Part shown: positions 2,622 to 45,403 of the stretch, one piece after another
How positions within the stretch are numbered: position 1 is the first letter of the stretch
Layout of the letters: each line of letters opens with the position of its first letter
Assembly (NCBI GenBank): GCA_963663405.2
Contig: CAXXSM010000021.1
Coordinates: 76,519-140,518, forward strand
Length of the DNA: 64,000 bases
Origin: a bacterium
GTDB lineage: Bacteria; Hinthialibacterota; Hinthialibacteria; Hinthialibacterales; Hinthialibacteraceae
Reading direction: 5' to 3'
Made by a program: the position numbers and the translations under genes
Notes under the pieces: model-generated
What the model saw: the letters and a program-made list of their open reading frames with translations, nothing else
Databases searched by the model: none
Told to the model about the DNA's origin: nothing

Positions 2622-3401
2622 ATGAAAAAAACGATCTTTTACGGTACTCTTATGGCAGCAGTATTTGCTTCCAGCGCATTCGCTCACTTTCCAATGTTAA
2701 CATGTGACACGATCTTTGGAGAGTCCAACCAACCCGTCCAAATCGTATTCGCTGTTGGGCATCCTTATGAACAGGAATACGAAAACGCGATGAAACCAGA
2801 GCGGGTAACAGCGATTCTTCCAAACGGAAATACGATGGATCTCACCGCTCAATTGCAAGAGAAAAAGATCCCTTACAAGGGAGAATCCGTTATTGCTTGG
2901 AATCTGGAATACAAACCGAGACGAAGAGGGGATACGATCATCGCGTTGGATACAAAACCACACATCGGTGAAAATAACACACTCTATCAGGAATACGTAA
3001 AATTAATCGTTCATACTGAAAGCGAAAGAGGCTGGCGCCAACGGACGGGGAAACCTCTTGAAATCGTTCCTCTCACCCGCCCCTATGGAATCGAAGAGGG
3101 CGAAGTCTTTACCGCGCAGTTGATGAAAGGAGACGCGCCGGTCGCGGATGAGACCGTCTATATTGAGCGGTTCCTCATGCAAGCCCCAGATCCCGATGAT
3201 CTCCCGCCCGAACCTCTCATCACAAAATCCGTCGTCACCGATCCCAACGGCGTTTTTTCCTGCACGCTGCTAAAGCCGGGTTGGTGGATCTGCGCGGCGG
3301 AAGTAGATGATTTGGGCAAAATCGAACGGGATGGAAAAACAATGACTCTCGAAGCGCTGACAGGCTTGTGGATTCACGTGGAAAAGAAGCAAAAACAGTA
3401 A
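2622..3401 (+). CDS. DUF4198 family periplasmic protein (Ni/Co uptake-associated)
   Basis: Signal peptide ending AFA-H (N-terminal His), GHPYE, LEIVPLTRPYG and TDPNGVF motifs. Confidence 0.85.
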   Translation: MKKTIFYGTLMAAVFASSAFAHFPMLTCDTIFGESNQPVQIVFAVGHPYEQEYENAMKPERVTAILPNGNTMDLTAQLQEKKIPYKGESVIAWNLEYKPRRRGDTIIALDTKPHIGENNTLYQEYVKLIVHTESERGWRQRTGKPLEIVPLTRPYGIEEGEVFTAQLMKGDAPVADETVYIERFLMQAPDPDDLPPEPLITKSVVTDPNGVFSCTLLKPGWWICAAEVDDLGKIERDGKTMTLEALTGLWIHVEKKQKQ

Positions 3402-3568: not shown

Positions 3569-5095
3569 ATGAACGGCAAGTTTTACCTCACTACGGCGAT
3601 TTCGTATGTCAACGCGCGTCCTCACATTGGGCACGCCTATGAGTTTATCGCATCGGATGCGATCTGCCGTTTCCGCCGGATGCAGGGCAAAAAGGTCTTT
3701 TTTCTTTCCGGGGTGGACGAACACAGCGCCCAGGTCGAGAAATCCGCGAAGGATGAAGGCGCGCCGCTGCCCGAATACTGCGACCGTATGGCGGCTCTCT
3801 TCAAAGACCTGCACGAGCGCGTCGATTCCAGCCTGGATGGATTCATCCGCACCAGCGAACCACGCCACCATGACACAACGAAGGAAATGCTGCGCCGCTC
3901 GTATGAAAAAGGCGATATCTATAAAGGATCGTACAAAGGCTGGTATTGCTATTCCTGCGAAGCGTACTATCAAGAGAAGGAACTCACGGAAGGGAATTGC
4001 CCCGTCCACAACCGCCCGGCGCAATGGATCGAGGAAGAGAATTATTTCTTCAAATTAAGTTCGTATACAGAACAACTCAAACGCCATTACGAAGAATGCC
4101 CGTCCTTCGTCCAGCCGGACACATACCGGAACGAGATGCTTGCGCTGATGGATCGTGGTTTGCAGGACATCAGTATATCCCGGTCCACCACGTCGTGGGG
4201 AATCCCTCTGCCCTGGGACAGCGGCCATGTCGCCTATGTCTGGTTCGACGCGCTTTCGAACTACCTCACCGGCGTTGGTTTTTTGAAAGACGATGAGTTG
4301 TTCGACACATTCTGGCCCGCCGACGTTCATATAATCGGAAAAGACATCAATCGCTTCCACAGCGTGTTCTGGCCCGCCATGCTTCTTTCCACAGATCTTC
4401 CATTGCCCGAACAAGTGTTTGTGCATGGATTCATCTATCATCGCGGCGAAAAAATGTCTAAAACCATCGGCAACATTGTCGATCCGTATTCGCTATTAGA
4501 TCAGTATGGATGCGATCCCCTGCGTTATTTCCTCCTGCGGGAAATCGCGTTTGGTCAGGATGGCAACTATTCCGAAGAAACCCTGATCACCCGCTATAAC
4601 GCCGACTTGGCCAATGACCTGGGCAATCTATTTTCCCGCGTTTTGTCCATGATCAAGAAATATCGGGATAGCGTGGTTCCCTCCGCTGCGGGAACGGACG
4701 ATTCGCTCCGGGACGCTGCGCGGGCGGCAGTCTCCGCATACGAAGGGCATATGGAGAAATACACGCTTCATCTTGCCCTTATCAGTGTGTGGGAACTGAT
4801 CTCCCACGCCAACCGCTACGTCGACGAACAAGCCCCCTGGGCCTTGGTGAAGGACGAGAGTAAAGCGGAAATTCTCGATCGGGTTTTGCTCAATCTTGCG
4901 GAAATGCTGCGGACCACGGCGGTTTTGATCTATCCCTTTATGCCAGCGACAGCGGTGGAGATGTTAACACGTCTCGCCTGTCCAACCGAAACCGGTTATC
5001 CGCTGCTAACCGATCTTAAAAAAGCCGATCTTACCGCAGGCAAAACCGTCACACCCGGCGCGCCCCTCTTCCCACGGTTGGATCGAAACGGTTGA
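3569..5095 (+). CDS. metG: Methionine--tRNA ligase, short form without C-terminal tRNA-binding domain
   Basis: HIGH and KMSKT motifs, YVWFDAL, single Zn knuckle. Confidence 0.97.
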   Translation: MNGKFYLTTAISYVNARPHIGHAYEFIASDAICRFRRMQGKKVFFLSGVDEHSAQVEKSAKDEGAPLPEYCDRMAALFKDLHERVDSSLDGFIRTSEPRHHDTTKEMLRRSYEKGDIYKGSYKGWYCYSCEAYYQEKELTEGNCPVHNRPAQWIEEENYFFKLSSYTEQLKRHYEECPSFVQPDTYRNEMLALMDRGLQDISISRSTTSWGIPLPWDSGHVAYVWFDALSNYLTGVGFLKDDELFDTFWPADVHIIGKDINRFHSVFWPAMLLSTDLPLPEQVFVHGFIYHRGEKMSKTIGNIVDPYSLLDQYGCDPLRYFLLREIAFGQDGNYSEETLITRYNADLANDLGNLFSRVLSMIKKYRDSVVPSAAGTDDSLRDAARAAVSAYEGHMEKYTLHLALISVWELISHANRYVDEQAPWALVKDESKAEILDRVLLNLAEMLRTTAVLIYPFMPATAVEMLTRLACPTETGYPLLTDLKKADLTAGKTVTPGAPLFPRLDRNG

Positions 5096-5330
5096 TTTCA
5101 ATTCCCGGCGTTCTGTCAATTCATACATTCAATTCAAAAAAACAATAATTCTCTACTTCCCGCATTACGAACCAATCAAATCCTTTCGACAATTCTTTAC
5201 AACTTTTTTGCCAGGAAAAATTTATTAATGATATATTGTCTGCGTCATTATCTCTTCTTTGTATAATTTATGTTTAGGGCCGCACAGCCCTTGGTGGAAA
5301 ATAATCAATCAGTGTGTTTGGAGAAGGTTT

Positions 5331-7928
5331 ATGAGTCTCGACCAGTCTCATTTTCGTTATTTCCCATTCTATAGAACCCACTCATCAGGCAATAAACAAA
5401 ATACTTCCTGGACATCCCCTCATGTCCTCATTGGAATACTCATCATCCTTGTTGGATTACTGGCGCCACAAATCAGTCATGCGGAGAAGACGCTTCTTGG
5501 GATCGGCCCGGTTAAATCCGTCGCGTTCTCTCCCGATGGGCGATATGTGGCCACCGCTGGGGATATTGGTGTGATCGTGTGGGATATCAGCAGCGGCGCC
5601 GCGATCCTGATTCATTGGTACAAGGACCACACGGGCGCCGTTCGATCCGTCGCGTTTTCTCCTGACAGTACGAAATTGGTCACTGGCAGTGTGGATACGA
5701 CGGCGATTATCTGGGATCTCGAAGGGGGAGTGGATACCGTTTTTGAGGGACATTCCGCCTGGGTATTATCAGCTGTCTTTTCCCCCGATGGCGCAACGAT
5801 CCTAACTGCGGGACTTGATAACGCCGCCCGTGTCTATGATCCAGAGGCGGATGAACAGACGCTGGTCATTCGTGACCGGTTTACCGACTTTCTCACGGCG
5901 GTTTTTTCTCCCAATGCGAGTAGCATTTTAACCGGTGGACGGAACGGCCGGGTTGTTTTATGGGATCCGGCCAATGGATTGGAACTCCTCGCGTTTGAAG
6001 GTCATACAGGGGATGTCCCATCAGCCGCCTTCTCCCCCAATGGCAGATGGATCATTACGGGCAGCATGGATGGCACGGCGAAAATCTGGCAGGTTTCGGA
6101 TGGCTCCGAGCTGTTTTCTCTCACCGAACACAATGGTGGAGTGCCCGCCGTCGCGTTCTCTCCCGATAACGCTTATGTGTTGACAGGCGGGGAAGATGGA
6201 ACCGCCATTCTCTGGGACGTGGAAACGGGGGAATCGATCCGAGTTTTTGAAGGTCATTCTCAACCCATTCGATCTGTCGCATTTTCCCCGGATGGTTTGA
6301 AAGTACTAACTGGAAGTGATGATGAAACCGCCCGGCTTTGGGATATCTCCGATCTTTATCCAGCCCCGGAAGCCGAAGTGTCCATCGGTGGAGGCGCCTA
6401 TGGCGCCCAATCCGGCGCGTATGTTCCCATCGATATTCGAATCGATAATTTGCAAAGCACGCGGACGATCAGTTTTGAATTGGGCTTCGATTCCGAATTG
6501 TTAGAATATGCCGGTGAGGTTTCTATCGTAGAAACCATGTTGACATCCTGGGCGCTGGCGGACGCGTACGAAATCGCGCCGGGTACGGTCCGCGTATCGG
6601 CGGCGGCGCTTGGAGGAGCGGCGGTCAACGGAAGTGGCACATTAATGACGATTCTCTTTAAGGTCAAAGATGAGATCGCAGGCGGCCGGTACACTTCGAT
6701 TACCTTCAACCGATTGTTTGACAATTTGACCACAGTCACGCCGTTGGATATCGCTGTGCCAATCGGCTTGAAGGGAGATGTGGATGGGAGCGGTTATGTG
6801 ACGGCCGCGGATGTACAGATGACATTCGAGATTTCTCTCGGCCGGTTTCTTCCATCCGTCTATCAACAATGGGCGGGGGAATTTACGAGTGATGGAGTGA
6901 TCACCGCTCTTGATGTGCAGCGGGTTTTCCAAGCCTCACTTGGACGCGACACGGAGTACAGCGCGAAACGGATCGTATCCGGCCGCAGTGTGCTAACGCC
7001 GGTGCTCAAGATCGATGATGTGACGGCTCTGCCCGGTGAAGAGATCTCCATTCCTGTGACCATTGAACCAAATTCCCGTGTTGCGGCGTTTTTGATCGAT
7101 TTGCAATACGACATCTCTCGTCTTGTTTTCAATGGGATCGATAAAGAAGGCATGTTAACCGAAGAATTTGGATTCACGGAAGCGTATGAAAAATCGCCTG
7201 GCTCGATCCGGATTTCCGCCGCCGCTCTCGACGCCGCGCCGATTCGAAATGTTGGTACGCTGTTCAATCTAAAATTTACGGTGAATGAAGCCGCTTTCGG
7301 CGCCGCGTCCGTATGGATTCAGGCCCTTGCCGATGACTTGGCGGAAGCGTCGGCGATTGATGGTTTGGTCACAATCAAGGCCGGGGAAGATCTAGAACCA
7401 GACACTCCAGGAGATTCGTTCGATCCGTATATCATCTACCCATTTGATTCGGAAAGCGAGTACATCGAAATCCCCGGAGGCTGGACCCAAGCGCCGGCCG
7501 GTTCGGTCACACTCGGTGAGATCCCCTGGCAGATGTCTGATTACACCGACGGCTTCGGAGCCATCATTACAACCGGGCCGGGCGAGGTGGAAATATTGCA
7601 ATTCCCAGAAATCGATGCGGGGGATTCGATGGTTCTTATACAAATATCCATTTATTCAGACAGGGAAACCAGTGTCACTTTAGCGGCGATAGACGGCGCG
7701 ATGGACGGCTCCCACATCGCCAACACTCCCGCCTACACCGCCCTCAATCCAAACCAGTACACCCGCCTGTCGATTACATACGATCCCCCCGGAACGACGG
7801 TCATCCCCATCCTCCAAACCGCCAATCCAACGGGTATCGATACCGCCAAAACCTACATTGACAACCTGAAAATCTATCTCCTCCCCAAAACCGCGTTAAT
7901 TCCTGTGTCCCTTTTGTATGGTGAATAA
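5331..7928 (+). CDS. Secreted WD40 propeller protein with cohesin, dockerin and second cohesin domains
   Basis: About 7 GH...WD repeats, two cohesin-like segments (FDSELLEY; YDISRLVF), dockerin GDVDGSGYVTAAD...DGVITALD. Confidence 0.8.
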   Translation: MSLDQSHFRYFPFYRTHSSGNKQNTSWTSPHVLIGILIILVGLLAPQISHAEKTLLGIGPVKSVAFSPDGRYVATAGDIGVIVWDISSGAAILIHWYKDHTGAVRSVAFSPDSTKLVTGSVDTTAIIWDLEGGVDTVFEGHSAWVLSAVFSPDGATILTAGLDNAARVYDPEADEQTLVIRDRFTDFLTAVFSPNASSILTGGRNGRVVLWDPANGLELLAFEGHTGDVPSAAFSPNGRWIITGSMDGTAKIWQVSDGSELFSLTEHNGGVPAVAFSPDNAYVLTGGEDGTAILWDVETGESIRVFEGHSQPIRSVAFSPDGLKVLTGSDDETARLWDISDLYPAPEAEVSIGGGAYGAQSGAYVPIDIRIDNLQSTRTISFELGFDSELLEYAGEVSIVETMLTSWALADAYEIAPGTVRVSAAALGGAAVNGSGTLMTILFKVKDEIAGGRYTSITFNRLFDNLTTVTPLDIAVPIGLKGDVDGSGYVTAADVQMTFEISLGRFLPSVYQQWAGEFTSDGVITALDVQRVFQASLGRDTEYSAKRIVSGRSVLTPVLKIDDVTALPGEEISIPVTIEPNSRVAAFLIDLQYDISRLVFNGIDKEGMLTEEFGFTEAYEKSPGSIRISAAALDAAPIRNVGTLFNLKFTVNEAAFGAASVWIQALADDLAEASAIDGLVTIKAGEDLEPDTPGDSFDPYIIYPFDSESEYIEIPGGWTQAPAGSVTLGEIPWQMSDYTDGFGAIITTGPGEVEILQFPEIDAGDSMVLIQISIYSDRETSVTLAAIDGAMDGSHIANTPAYTALNPNQYTRLSITYDPPGTTVIPILQTANPTGIDTAKTYIDNLKIYLLPKTALIPVSLLYGE

Positions 7929-42953: not shown

Positions 42954-43310
42954 GATCCGCGTTCCTCTTTAGTTTTTTTTCGATCGTTTATTGTTATCTT
43001 GAACCACGGCGATTGGTTATGGCTCTTCCCGCAATAAATCCCCATGATTCTAAATAGTATTTTAACTGTTAAAGGGCCTTTCTGTTACCACTTGGATTGA
43101 TAATACCATCTTAAATCTTTCGAATTCTCTGTCAAGCAAAGACCTGAAAGATATGACGATTCAATTCGTATCCCTGTTAATCGTTTAAAAATTGACGTCT
43201 CAGCCGTGTGGCGCAGCTCGTCTGTATTGTTTTACGGTTTCCAGGATGATTGTATTTCTTTTGTTGTTTCCCCTTGATTAATAATACCGAACCGCGTTTA
43301 ATCGCATTTA

Positions 43311-43346
43311 GTAATACATAATTATTTTTCGTGTTACTCTTAAAAT
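43311..43346 (+). promoter_or_regulatory. Second NikR-like operator, with adjacent -10 element
   Basis: GTAATAC-N13-GTGTTAC at 43311-43337; TAAAAT at 43341-43346. Confidence 0.6.
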
Positions 43347-43368
43347 CAAGAATAGGAGTTTATAAACG

Positions 43369-44175
43369 ATGAAGGTTTCGTCTATCTATTTCATTCTCGT
43401 TTCGGTTCTGTTCCTTGTCTCTTCGGCGAATGGGCAAGAGATTACGCCGATCGGCGATATTAACGCCGTCGATGAGGAAGGGAACGCTATTTTCGCAGGG
43501 CTTCAGACCATGGATCAATATACGATCGAAGGAATTGCGTTAAACGATCCAGGGATCTACTGGGGCGGAGAAGGGGAGAGGAGTGATTTTATTCTATACG
43601 TTCAGGATGATACGGGCGGCATTCAGGTTTACTCGGGGGGATGGTATGGTGGTGGAATTGAGAGTTATGCGGACACACCGGTCCAGCAGGGGGATCGTGT
43701 CCGCGTAACCGGATTGACAGGAAGTTATGGTGGCAAGACCAATGTGAATGAACGCCATAATCCCGATCAGAAGTTTGTGATTGAAAACCTTGGATACGTT
43801 GGCGATCCCGAACCGTTGATTATTGAAGATCTGACCGCCGCTTCGCAGTTTGATTCCACCCGGCAAACCGGAGGTGAATACTATCAAGGCCGTCTGGTAA
43901 AATTAATGAACGTGCAGATCGTCGATGGGGAATGGGGAAGCGGCGCGATGTTGACTGTTGCGGATTCAATGGGGGGAACATTCCCCGTTGAACTACGCGC
44001 TTCGACGGGTATCGGCGACTATCCCGCGCCGGAAGGAACCTTCGATGTTGTGGGCGTATTCAACCAAGAAGATGAGGAAGCGCCTTATATCGATAACTAT
44101 TTACTCTGGCCGCGCTCGATTGAAGACTTTGGTTTGGAGGCCAGTTCCGCTGATGATTGGGATCTGTACAAATAG
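43369..44175 (+). CDS. Secreted acidic OB-fold-like protein
   Basis: Signal peptide; LYVQDDTGGIQV, GDRVRVTG and GRLVKLMNV; ends SSADDWDLYK. Confidence 0.75.
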   Translation: MKVSSIYFILVSVLFLVSSANGQEITPIGDINAVDEEGNAIFAGLQTMDQYTIEGIALNDPGIYWGGEGERSDFILYVQDDTGGIQVYSGGWYGGGIESYADTPVQQGDRVRVTGLTGSYGGKTNVNERHNPDQKFVIENLGYVGDPEPLIIEDLTAASQFDSTRQTGGEYYQGRLVKLMNVQIVDGEWGSGAMLTVADSMGGTFPVELRASTGIGDYPAPEGTFDVVGVFNQEDEEAPYIDNYLLWPRSIEDFGLEASSADDWDLYK

Positions 44176-44821
44176 GGATTCGTTCACTCTGATTGAACTC
44201 TTAATCGTGGTGGCCATCATTGGGATTCTGGCGGCCATCGCGGTCCCTAATTTTCTCAACGCCCAGATCCGCAGCAAGATCGCGGCGGCGAAGGCGCAGA
44301 TCAGCGCTTGTTACACAGCGTTGGAATCCTACCGGCTGGATGAGAACGCGCTGCCGCCGACGCGGTATTTCTGCCTGGCGTTGGGAGCTGAGACGTACAA
44401 AAAATATTTTGAACTGCCGTATGAATTAACGACGCCAACCGCCTATCTGAGCGTGCGGCCGTTGGATCCGTTTTATTCTTTCCCAGGCGCGTCCAACGAG
44501 GCGCCCGGACAAACGATCAAATACCGGCGGCCCGGCTATGGATATTTCAACAACATGCCGACGCAGGAGGGAATCTGGATTCCCAAATCGTTCCCCATTG
44601 ACGATGGGGATTACATTTTTTACAACGACGCCTCGGAGGAACATCCCGCGTCGAAATCTCCCGTGGAATACGGCCTTTGGAGCGTCGGCCCTATTCCGAA
44701 AGAAGAGATCTCGATGAATATTTACGAACCGGTCCCCTCGCATACCTGGTACGCTTCGTCCAACGGTTTGGTCAGCACGGGGATCATCGTTCGATTAAGC
44801 ACGGGCCACTCGGCTCCCTGA
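44153..44821 (+). CDS. Prepilin-type N-terminal cleavage/methylation protein (pseudopilin-like)
   Basis: GGAGG RBS; RDS|FTLIELLIVVAIIGILAAIAVPNF; LTTPTAYL..DPF and WSVGP. Confidence 0.85.
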   Translation: MIGICTNRDSFTLIELLIVVAIIGILAAIAVPNFLNAQIRSKIAAAKAQISACYTALESYRLDENALPPTRYFCLALGAETYKKYFELPYELTTPTAYLSVRPLDPFYSFPGASNEAPGQTIKYRRPGYGYFNNMPTQEGIWIPKSFPIDDGDYIFYNDASEEHPASKSPVEYGLWSVGPIPKEEISMNIYEPVPSHTWYASSNGLVSTGIIVRLSTGHSAP

Positions 44822-44839
44822 TCTAGAAAGGATGCTACA

Positions 44840-45403
44840 ATGACTTTATATTCCCGTTTGTCTCTTTTGTCTCTAATTTTTATCATCGCGATAGTGCCTA
44901 TAACCATTATGGCTCACAAAGATCATTCTGATGGTCACGATCATTCTCATGATGGAACGATGACCTCTCACGTCGAATTCCGTCCATTAACCGAAGAGGA
45001 ACTCGAACGATTCCACGGGCATTTGGGGCCTTTCGTCGTATTAGGCGCCAAAATGGGGGAACACGCGGTGACGGTTCATGAGATCCCGCGTTATTTCGGT
45101 TTGACGGTCCTCGTGGAATGCCCGGATTCCCCGCCTTCTTCCTGCTTAATTGATGGATTGCAACCATCAACCGGCGCCACGATGGGGAAGAGAAACATCA
45201 AAATAACACCCGCTGAAGAAGTGAAGGTCACAATCATCAATGATGACAGCGGCAAGAAGGTCATCTACAAACTGAAAGCCTCCACGAAAGCCCTGTTCAA
45301 ACGCTGGGCGGACGAAAACACCATCACCATCACAGAACGCGGCCAGCGCGTGTTTAAGATGGAAGCGGAGGCGTTGTTTGATATTCAAGTAATAGAAGGA
45401 TAA
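44840..45403 (+). CDS. FmdE-family protein with signal peptide and His-rich N-terminus
   Basis: HKDHSDGHDHSHD, FHGHLGP and CLIDGLQ..TGATMGK motifs. Confidence 0.8.
   Translation: MTLYSRLSLLSLIFIIAIVPITIMAHKDHSDGHDHSHDGTMTSHVEFRPLTEEELERFHGHLGPFVVLGAKMGEHAVTVHEIPRYFGLTVLVECPDSPPSSCLIDGLQPSTGATMGKRNIKITPAEEVKVTIINDDSGKKVIYKLKASTKALFKRWADENTITITERGQRVFKMEAEALFDIQVIEG

Follow-up and report, generated by a model that had tools for sequence, protein, structure and literature searches.

Can a pilin-like protein serve in the acquisition of a transition metal? This question is raised by a 64,000-nucleotide stretch of a Hinthialibacteraceae genome (GenBank assembly GCA_963663405.2, contig CAXXSM010000021.1, positions 76,519 to 140,518 of the forward strand; referred to here as the window). 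In it, a putative operator precedes three closely spaced genes, designated here g1, g2 and g3, which encode a secreted OB-fold protein, a prepilin-type protein and an exported FmdE-domain protein. An earlier note, made from the sequence alone, had proposed that they form a nickel-repressed operon in which a pilin-like subunit stands in for a TonB-dependent receptor. We consider it probable, at roughly two chances in three, that g1-g2-g3 is a NikR-repressed operon for extracytoplasmic nickel acquisition that is expressed when nickel is scarce. Four independent lines of evidence tie g2 to metal acquisition: the repressor site, the strict pairing of g2 with g1, the predicted complex between their products, and the metal importer genes that neighbor the pair.

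The operator upstream of g1 is rare and is repeated in the window

The operator at 43311-43337 (GTAATAC-N13-GTGTTAC, no strand assigned) is of the NikR type and consists of two half-sites spaced 20 bp center to center. Its 3' end lies 31 bp upstream of the g1 ATG at 43369. Inspection of the sequence bore out the report of a matching operator 41 kb away: a perfect GTAACAC-N13-GTGTTAC at 2524-2550 (likewise without an assigned strand) is identical to the first at 13 of the 14 arm positions and has equal spacing, and the TTCGTGTTAC end is common to both. A weaker third half-site, TTATCAC, lies 20 bp further upstream at 2504-2510, and with it the second operator covers 2504-2550; in the genome-wide degenerate scan, this half-site gave the match C21:79022. 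This operator precedes a lone plus-strand gene for a periplasmic DUF4198 protein (2622-3401; PF10670, 117.6 bits), for which no NCBIfam family was found.

The degenerate pattern GTRWYAC-N13-GTRWYAC matched the window twice, compared with 0.00 matches expected from 100 shuffles. The search was then widened to the whole assembly (8,442,966 bp in 170 contigs, 82% complete), where the sites at 43311 and 2524 were the only ones with at most one mismatch to GTAACAC-N13-GTGTTAC. Allowing two mismatches added 10 sites at N13, a number like those at N12, N14 and N15 (5, 9 and 6, respectively). Exact GTRWYAC pairs occurred twice genome-wide at N13 and zero or one time at each spacing of 10 to 12 and 14 to 17. 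A chance origin of the operator was ruled out by these genome-wide scans and other-spacing controls.

Both operators are placed in a way that fits repression. A candidate sigma-70-type promoter on the plus strand (43274-43302) was read by eye as TTGATT (43274-43279), a 17-nt spacer and TTTAAT (43297-43302), and the operator starts about 8 bp past this candidate -10, that is, over or just after the -10/+1 region. The candidate failed a consensus scan in which the second base of the -10 hexamer has to be A. TTGAC-type -35 hexamers are found at the equivalent position relative to the operator in orthologous upstream regions, and by eye, the site in most orthologous loci follows or covers a TTGAC-type -35 and a -10. 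The operator at 2524 overlaps a promoter-like TTTACA-17-TATGAT (2533-2561) and lies within the -35/-10 spacer.

The operator resembles the NikR signal

The predicted NikR signal of the delta-proteobacteria is GTGTTAC-[N13/14]-GTAACAC, and in the available text of the same study, the reversed form, GTAACAC-N13-GTGTTAC, precedes nikMLKQO of Desulfotalea and a lone nikK of D. vulgaris (Rodionov et al. 2004, PMC545781). The operators in the window correspond to this reversed form in both arms and spacing, the site at 43311 with one mismatch. The genome encodes a single bona fide NikR, on contig C96 (NikR_C, 108 bits; NF003381, 191.9 bits with a cut-off of 105). Of the 34 genomes that make up the sample of the class, 33 have a NikR_C match. 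Experimental work on a Geobacter NikR operator reportedly exists. NikK is a protein that we take to be of the DUF4198/COG5266 family, to which the product of the lone gene behind the second operator also belongs. Genes for a nickel superoxide dismutase (NiSOD), a NiFe-hydrogenase and CbiM are present, so the organism would need nickel.

The nikR gene adjoins a gene for an RcnA-like permease, a member of an efflux family. This His-rich Ni/Co permease gene (L065 7104-8982, minus strand; G000:C96) is read in two overlapping frames of 436 and 214 amino acids, which may reflect a frameshift among the repeated His codons or else a sequencing error.

An exact-pattern scan of 20 related genomes placed sites upstream of genes for a CbiM/NikM-like protein (G002), DUF4198 proteins (G010 and G011) and a NiSOD (G021). 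Exact sites also precede a g1 homologue of a further family (G026) and a pilin-like gene (G008), the latter an orthologue of the pilin gene on contig C149 described below. Because a reversed-pattern control gave 0 to 3 matches per genome, some of these exact matches, namely those with GC-rich spacers, are due to chance. In relatives, the motif is found before recognized nickel genes (nikM-like, DUF4198 and NiSOD); at cbiM, sodN and nikR of the genome itself, operators were sought and none was convincing. In one relative (G012), the cluster has nikR as a neighbor, encoded on the opposite strand some 200 bp downstream of g3 (G012:C2:73536-74690; L024 4537-5912). Taken together, the match to the published signal, the single nikR and the motif at nickel genes of relatives indicate that the window sites probably belong to NikR.

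The site in G021 is a perfect GTGTTAC-N13-GTAACAC (L049 1501-1527; G021:C4:341266-341292), about 165 to 225 bp upstream of the NiSOD gene. Repression of NiSOD by NikR would be counterintuitive, as nickel would lower NiSOD; NikR may activate the gene there, or the site may act on another target.

The gene cluster and its operator are conserved in related genomes

All three genes lie on the plus strand: g1 at 43369-44175, g2 at 44153-44821 and g3 at 44840-45403. Open reading frame (ORF) coordinates confirmed their tight coupling, with a 23-bp overlap of g1 and g2 if g2 starts at the ATG at 44153 and an 18-bp gap between g2 and g3. We also weighed whether the operon extends to a fourth member, yjbQ, and rejected this, as no yjbQ match was found in 25 related loci and a promoter-like site precedes yjbQ.

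The earlier note had named synteny of the cluster and conservation of the operator as the points to examine, and both were borne out in relatives. An FmdE gene is present in 26 of the 34 sampled genomes, and 25 of these loci were compared. The order g1-g2-g3 is kept in 15 of them, and one more locus has a partial cluster that runs into a contig end. Within the same family, every genome with an FmdE gene has the cluster (14/14, one of them partial), and two other families contribute one genome each. FmdE occurs without g1 in 9 of the 25 loci; in L035 and L046, an FmdE gene without g1 or g2 adjoins an ORF that looks Nramp-like by eye.

A strict, oriented form of the operator matched just 1 of the 25 loci, and the notion of one fixed orientation was dropped. 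The oriented scan missed sites because the half-sites occur in every relative orientation, always at N13 (GTATTAC..GTAATAC, GTAATAC..GTATTAC and the direct GTAATAC..GTAACAC), and the half-site GTAnTAC is itself nearly palindromic. Relatives were therefore scanned with GTRWYAC-N13-GTRWYAC, with at most two mismatches and within about 110 bp upstream of g1. By this measure, 13 of the 15 complete clusters keep two half-sites upstream of g1; of the two exceptions, L039 has a three-mismatch version only and L047 has none. Of the sites in the 168,753 bp scanned, the 5 exact ones all fall upstream of g1, and so do 3 of the 4 with one mismatch. Spacings of 10 to 12 and 14 to 18 gave no exact match in the 25 FmdE loci.

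Properties of the three encoded proteins

g1 encodes a secreted tandem OB-fold protein of 268 amino acids. Its Pfam match to DUF5689 (PF18942) is borderline (22.2 bits, below the cut-off of 28.6), and no NCBIfam family was found for it. The AlphaFold2 (AF2) model is of high confidence (pLDDT [predicted local distance difference test] score, 93.2; predicted template modeling score [pTM], 0.88) and comprises two OB domains, which matched the HIN domains of p202, p204 and IFI16 as well as RPA70 in Foldseek; the domains also match OB folds of telomere proteins, AspRS-N and YgiW. In structural comparison, the first OB domain reached a Z score of 10.7 and the second one of 9.1. The protein has a signal peptide of the SPI type, has no lipobox and is strongly acidic (net charge, -31; pI 4.05), a property shared by all 59 aligned family sequences (net charge, -11 to -42; median, -21; pI 4.4). 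Of the 86 g1 homologues listed, about 47 are close and labeled Hinthialibacter or "Omnitrophota." Homologues of 330 to 345 amino acids carry a dockerin-like C-terminal extension. Several of the 86 have a precomputed PF18942 match, and one is named "predicted extracellular nuclease" by JGI.

The g1 protein ends in a W-x-x-[YF] tail (44161-44175), which is kept in 15 of 16 orthologues; the copy in L029 ends in W-x-x-L. About 130 of the roughly 7,226 ORF-level proteins of the genome end in [polar]-W-x-x-[YF] followed by 0 to 2 residues, often after V-x-D/E. From its sequence distribution, the tail looks like a lineage-specific C-terminal sorting tail. Pilin-like genes have a W-tailed neighbor in 13 of 136 cases, compared with about 5 expected (approximately 2.7-fold). 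A role of the tail as a pilin-docking element was rejected, as this adjacency is only 2.7 times the expectation and the predicted interface with g2 avoids the tail.

The product of g2 is a 222-amino-acid prepilin-type (pseudopilin-like) protein. It has an FTLIELL motif with Glu at position +5 followed by a hydrophobic helix, and matches N_methyl models above their cut-offs (PF07963, 31.7 bits with a cut-off of 21.2; TIGR02532, 25 bits with a cut-off of 16.3). We do not regard it as a full-length GspG major pseudopilin, since the match to TIGR01710 falls below the cut-off (56.4 against 88.85 bits) and covers residues 10 to 106 only, and the match to PF08334 is also below its cut-off (19.8 against 21 bits). 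g2 is the best conserved of the three genes, at 50 to 81% identity to orthologues. Its globular domain is lineage-specific: residues 40 to 222 gave 36 homologues, all of them orthologues and all but two at 64 to 81% identity. The AF2 model (pLDDT, 70.3) consists of a long N-terminal helix (residues 13 to 64) and a beta-sheet. Type IV pilins and pseudopilins ranked top in Foldseek, as weak matches (E values of at least 0.07; none with E of 0.001 or lower). The genome contains two Peptidase_A24 matches and nine secretin matches (eight over the cut-off), none of which adjoins the operon. It has about 136 pilin-like genes and just two or three matches to TonB-dependent receptors.

The third gene, g3, encodes an exported FmdE-domain protein of 187 amino acids (PF02663, residues 58 to 181; 71.8 bits with a cut-off of 22.9), for which no NCBIfam family was found. 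As the earlier note had described, its translation begins with a hydrophobic stretch typical of a signal peptide, followed by HKDHSDGHDHSHD, and its mature N-terminus is His-rich. By eye, 9 of the 14 orthologues in the alignment have Ala-His after the signal peptide, which would place His at the mature N-terminus if cleavage follows Ala. H59, H61, C102 and D105 are invariant in all 14. The position of the first Cys ligand is taken by Gly63 (HGHLGP), so that three of the four FmdE metal ligands are kept; a weak sequence match to PDB entry 2gvi spans the HGH...C motif. In the crystal, the FmdE site of His, His, Cys and Cys held a mixture of Zn and Ni, with more Zn, and most FmdE genes adjoin metal-transporter genes, according to the available text (Axelrod et al. 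2010, PMC2954224).

The g1-g2 pair is predicted to form a complex and recurs across phyla

Cofolding of g1 (residues 23 to 268) with g2 (residues 36 to 222), from our own alignments, gave an interaction prediction score from aligned errors (ipSAE) of 0.81; the best control reached 0.21. A total of 116 of 157 solved complexes attained this mark, as did 2 of 215 mismatched pairs. Contacts agreed between runs by at least 89%, and the pLDDT of the partner was at least 84. The predicted contacts join a conserved g1 loop (residues 118 to 134, GGKTNxNERHN, in which H130 is invariant) to residues 74 to 79 and 132 to 140 of g2. The model thus supports binding between the two proteins.

The g1 alignment was also scanned against one genome per species, which gave 80 g1-like loci whose phyla were taken from record titles: Hinthialibacteria, Planctomycetota (Phycisphaerae, Sedimentisphaerales, Pirellulales and Planctomycetales), Armatimonadota, Verrucomicrobiota and Sumerlaeota. 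A pilin-like gene immediately follows the g1-like gene in all 79 evaluable loci. In 77 it is a full-length g2-like gene and in two an ORF with a pilin motif; the one other locus lies at a contig edge.

What follows the pair was surveyed among 109 ORFs of the 59 loci outside Hinthialibacteria. A ZnuA-family protein, usually with an ABC ATPase, is encoded downstream in 27 loci. FmdE follows in nine, Cupin_2 in five, CbiM, CbiQ or an ECF S-component in four, a nucleoside hydrolase in three (fused to FmdE in two), a concentrative nucleoside transporter in two, OEP in two, and NikR and YHS in one each. The single nikR belongs to L125, a locus with a Pirellulales title in which the gene (4825-5277; NikR_C, 96.6 bits) stands in the row g1-g2-cupin-nikR. 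The fusions (L109 and L114, 6046-7629, both with Phycisphaerae titles) are 528-amino-acid inosine-uridine nucleoside hydrolase-FmdE proteins encoded downstream of the pair.

A NikR-type site with at most two mismatches was present within 250 bp upstream in 28 of 72 evaluable g1-like loci, 11 of the 72 being Hinthialibacteria genomes that already figure in the comparison of relatives above, so that the two counts overlap. These sites comprise 3 exact, 12 one-mismatch and 13 two-mismatch matches, compared with 0, 3 and 26, respectively, in the remaining 541,879 bp. Among the loci with such sites are ZnuA-linked pairs (L092, L095, L097 and L101) with Verrucomicrobiota, Sumerlaeota and Phycisphaerae titles. 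A composite motif, GTAGCAC-N14-TATGCGC, which was defined post hoc from the same sequences, was found in 34 of 42 examined loci that lack the NikR-type site, compared with 4 background matches in 321 kb. It occurs in the 200 bp upstream of g1-like genes in loci with Planctomycetota titles (L098-L156), often in tandem and right after a TTGAC hexamer, and contains a NikR-like half-site.

Further operator-bearing operons in the genome

The genome holds 30 more one-mismatch sites of the form GTRWYAC-N13-GTRWYAC, of which 11, picked by eye for AT-rich spacers, were inspected. Two of the 11 lie right after TTGACA hexamers and right before other prepilin-type genes. The first (ATAATAC-N13-GTAACAC) heads an operon on contig C149 (G000:C149:74658-81239; L064 2659-9239) that encodes, in order, a pilin-like protein, a BNR_4-like secreted protein with a W-tail, MotA_ExbB, DUF2149 and CobN. 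The second (GTAATAT-N13-GTAATAC) heads an operon on contig C112 (G000:C112:1966-6891; L063) with genes for a pilin-like protein, a 297-amino-acid secreted protein with a W-tail and a second DUF4198 protein, a paralogue of the first. The pilin-like gene of this operon breaks off after 111 codons, where a Transposase_29 insertion, encoded on the opposite strand, interrupts it. Of the four best sites in the genome, three therefore precede pilin-containing operons, and pilin-like genes make up about 136 of some 7,226 ORF-level genes.

The cobN gene on C149 is split over two ORFs that overlap (L064 5699-8194 and 8016-9239), and either a frameshift or an assembly error may account for this. Elsewhere in the window, an ORF at 2-1030 has long Thr/Pro-rich repeats, and an 889-amino-acid protein is encoded at 5259-7928 in which WD40 repeats followed by dockerin/cohesin-like segments were discerned by eye.

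Proposed mechanism and alternative explanations

In the mechanism that we propose, a NikR tetramer would bind the GTRWYAC half-sites 20 bp apart, after the -10 hexamer, and block transcription. When nickel falls, g1, g2 and g3 would be made; g1 and g3 would be exported by their Sec signal peptides, and g2 would insert by way of its prepilin helix and be processed by one of the two prepilin peptidases. The g1 protein is predicted to dock with its dedicated pilin, g2, at the pilin's globular head, and a secretin or type IV filament machine would display the pair in the outer membrane or pull it through. There, the pair would capture Ni(II) or a nickel complex, a task that in other systems falls to a TonB-dependent receptor together with its surface partner. 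The metal might then pass to periplasmic g3, acting as a metallochaperone through its His-x-His...Cys residues and His-rich N-terminus, and g3 would feed an inner-membrane importer, for which CbiM-NikL-CbiQ, encoded on contig C76, is a candidate. Since the pair fronts ZnuABC-type, ECF-type or cupin genes in other phyla, g1-g2 appears to be a conserved front end to which the third gene is exchangeable.

The suggestion that a pilin takes the place of a TonB-dependent receptor gained support from the invariable pairing of g1-like with pilin-like genes, from the metal-uptake neighbors and from the predicted complex. It is also backed by the two further operator-bearing, pilin-led operons and by the 2 to 3 TonB receptor matches in the genome compared with 9 secretin matches. 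In its general form, namely that an acidic OB-fold protein and a private pilin use type IV filament or secretin machinery for transition-metal import, replacing TonB-dependent receptors, the idea is tentative, and we would not give it even odds.

Several observations weigh against a nickel-acquisition operon of this kind. At the protein level, neither g1 nor g2 has a His- or Cys-rich motif: g1 has a single His (the invariant H130), and g2 contains two Cys, one of them (C74) invariant. The fold of g1 is that of nucleic-acid-binding OB/HIN proteins, and the described proteins nearest to it, DdbD and RA0C_RS04920 (both DUF5689), have been linked to the uptake of DNA. Across phyla, the predicted interface residues of g2 are less conserved than the rest of the globular domain (mean conservation, 0.22 compared with 0.38), with C74 alone invariant, and the notion of the interface as a universally conserved patch was unsupported at this range. 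The canonical prepilin peptidase site has Gly at position -1. g2 has Ser there, and its 37 orthologues have Ala (22), Gly (9) or Ser (6); as all three residues are small, cleavage of g2 is possible and not assured. At the regulatory level, the cbiM-nikL-cbiQ, sodN and nikR operons of the genome have no strict upstream site, which is unusual for a NikR regulon; upstream of cbiM there is just one lone half-site, and the two-mismatch matches at nikR and sodN, with their GC-rich spacers, were read as chance. FmdE-only lineages have no operator, 44 of the 72 evaluable g1-like loci have no strict operator, and the presence of the composite motif in many of the site-less loci means that in some lineages the pair may carry a metal other than nickel. 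The NikR motif used for comparison is, according to the available text, itself a computational prediction (PMC545781).

The last points bear on the cargo. In one alternative, g1-g2 would be a general front end for divalent metals (Zn, Mn or Co), and the NikR-type site would be the way in which one lineage regulates it. The commonest downstream partner of the pair is a ZnuA-family protein with an ABC ATPase; a NikR-type site with at most two mismatches precedes the pair in only 8 of the 27 ZnuA loci, the composite motif accompanies most pairs without a strict site, and Zn outweighed Ni in the FmdE crystal site. We nevertheless regard a cargo that is not specifically nickel as rather unlikely, given that this genome and its family have an operator of the NikR type, the other targets of which are nickel genes. 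Some ZnuA-linked pairs also have NikR-type sites, the composite motif keeps a NikR-like half-site, and nikR stands in the gene row of L125. A reading in which the operon sequesters excess nickel for protection, with NikR activating instead of repressing, draws on the His-rich tail of g3, the polyanionic g1 and the location of nikR beside an RcnA-like efflux-family gene. NikR activates some H. pylori genes, which lends such a scheme a precedent. It is very improbable, given operator positions typical of repression, co-regulated genes in relatives that are uptake components (nikM-like and DUF4198) and the joining of the pair to importers in other phyla.

The other two alternatives concern what the g1-g2 pair does. 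It could capture nucleic acid, with g1 as a DNA-binding OB protein on a competence-like pilin and the nickel link regulatory or incidental. The g1 model matches the tandem OB folds of HIN-200, RPA and telomere proteins. It has a weak DUF5689 match, precomputed PF18942 matches are found in several orthologues, and JGI calls one orthologue a predicted nuclease; DdbD and RA0C_RS04920, which are DUF5689 proteins, are the proposed DNA-binding partners of an outer-membrane transporter. Genes for a nucleoside transporter (L099 and L115) or an inosine-uridine nucleoside hydrolase (L109 and L114) come right after the pair in 4 of the 59 loci, and a fifth (L105) has a hydrolase-like ORF inside the g2-like gene. 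Against these at most 5 loci stand at least 40 of the 59 with metal-related neighbors, and no nuclease gene was seen among the ORFs examined after the pair. The strong acidity of all 59 family members is hard to square with the binding of a polyanion, and the NikR-type operator is conserved. Nucleic-acid capture, the main alternative for g1, is improbable on this evidence. Less improbable, though still unlikely, is a metal-related module in which g2 acts in export alone, as a dedicated pseudopilin or adaptor of a type II secretion-like machine that places g1 on the surface or in the medium, while the metal enters by an ordinary route. The N-terminus of g2 does resemble GspG (the subthreshold TIGR01710 match), the genome is rich in secretin matches and pilin-like genes, and the W-x-x-[YF] tail that g1 has in common with about 130 proteins looks like a sorting tag. 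Classical secretion substrates, however, have no private, coevolving pseudopilin, whereas the pairing here held in 79 of 79 loci; a stable head-on complex is predicted through conserved g1 loops and not the tail, and pilin-like genes are enriched beside tailed proteins only modestly (13 of 136 compared with about 5). We thus favor nickel acquisition by g1-g2-g3 over these alternatives.

Comparison with known systems

NikR operators, FmdE, and the pilin and OB folds are already known. A search of a limited literature library for pseudopilins with NikR, pilin-like proteins with nickel uptake, and prepilins with ZnuA or Planctomycetes found nothing relevant, and the available text of the Hinthialibacter genome paper neither mentions nickel nor discusses these pilin-like genes. 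The combination of a pilin strictly paired with an OB-fold protein, a metal repressor and metal importers was not found in print in this limited search.

Pilin-like genes number in the tens to hundreds in each genome of the Planctomycetota, Verrucomicrobiota, Armatimonadota and related phyla without cultured members. If the proposed reading is true, part of these large gene families would gain its first concrete function, and the operon would represent a new outer-envelope route for the uptake of nickel and possibly zinc. The NikR regulon would be extended, and the FmdE family would gain a role as an exported metallochaperone.

The regulatory arrangement is closest to the NikR regulons of the delta-proteobacteria, which have the same half-sites (GTGTTAC/GTAACAC) at N13 in both orientations with nikR present. 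The lone nikK behind a reversed site in D. vulgaris finds its counterpart here in the lone DUF4198 gene. The two differ in that the ECF nickel transporter has no strict site here, in that direct-repeat half-sites occur in orthologues (L043 and L044), and in that genes of the g1, g2 and g3 types are not among the NikR targets given in the available text of PMC545781.

As a member of the FmdE family (2GLZ, 2GVI and 3D00), g3 shares the core alpha+beta domain and the HGH...C residues, and the genes of that family likewise neighbor metal transporters. Unlike those proteins, g3 is exported, has a His-rich mature N-terminus and HGHLGP in place of HGHxCP, and is without the C-terminal zinc finger.

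The hmu heme operon of Porphyromonas and Bacteroides encodes HmuY, HmuR, the CobN-like HmuS, a MotA/ExbB-like protein and DUF2149. The operon on C149 shares MotA_ExbB, DUF2149 and CobN in a row but has a pilin-like gene and a gene for a secreted BNR-like protein where hmu has the hemophore and the TonB receptor, and a NikR-type site stands in front of it.

For g1, the nearest parallel is offered by DdbC-DdbD of Bacteroides thetaiotaomicron and RA0C_RS04915/04920 of Riemerella anatipestifer, in which a DUF5689 surface protein accompanies a TonB-dependent transporter and which have roles in DNA utilization and natural transformation. g1 shares with the DdbD-like proteins a borderline DUF5689 match and a HIN/RPA-like tandem OB architecture. 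Its gene also adjoins that of an envelope component that would move the cargo inwards, which g1 is predicted to bind. In contrast to these systems, the partner of g1 is pilin-like and not a TonB barrel in all 79 loci, g1 has no lipobox and is strongly acidic, and its context is one of metal importers and a NikR operator, not nucleases.

Type IV filaments of the competence pseudopilus and pilus kinds draw DNA in through a secretin. With these and with GspG of type II secretion, finally, g2 shares the prepilin motif with Glu5 and, to judge from its model, may share the helix-plus-sheet fold, and prepilin peptidases and many secretins are encoded in the genome. In models of DNA uptake, a filament subunit carries a cargo-binding partner. 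The g1-g2 pair would be comparable in design, but its context suggests that the cargo is a transition metal. It differs further from these filaments in that the -1 residue is Ala, Ser or Gly, not always Gly, and in that g2 lies outside an assembly-gene cluster, within a substrate-specific regulon, where it is paired one-to-one with an OB-fold protein.

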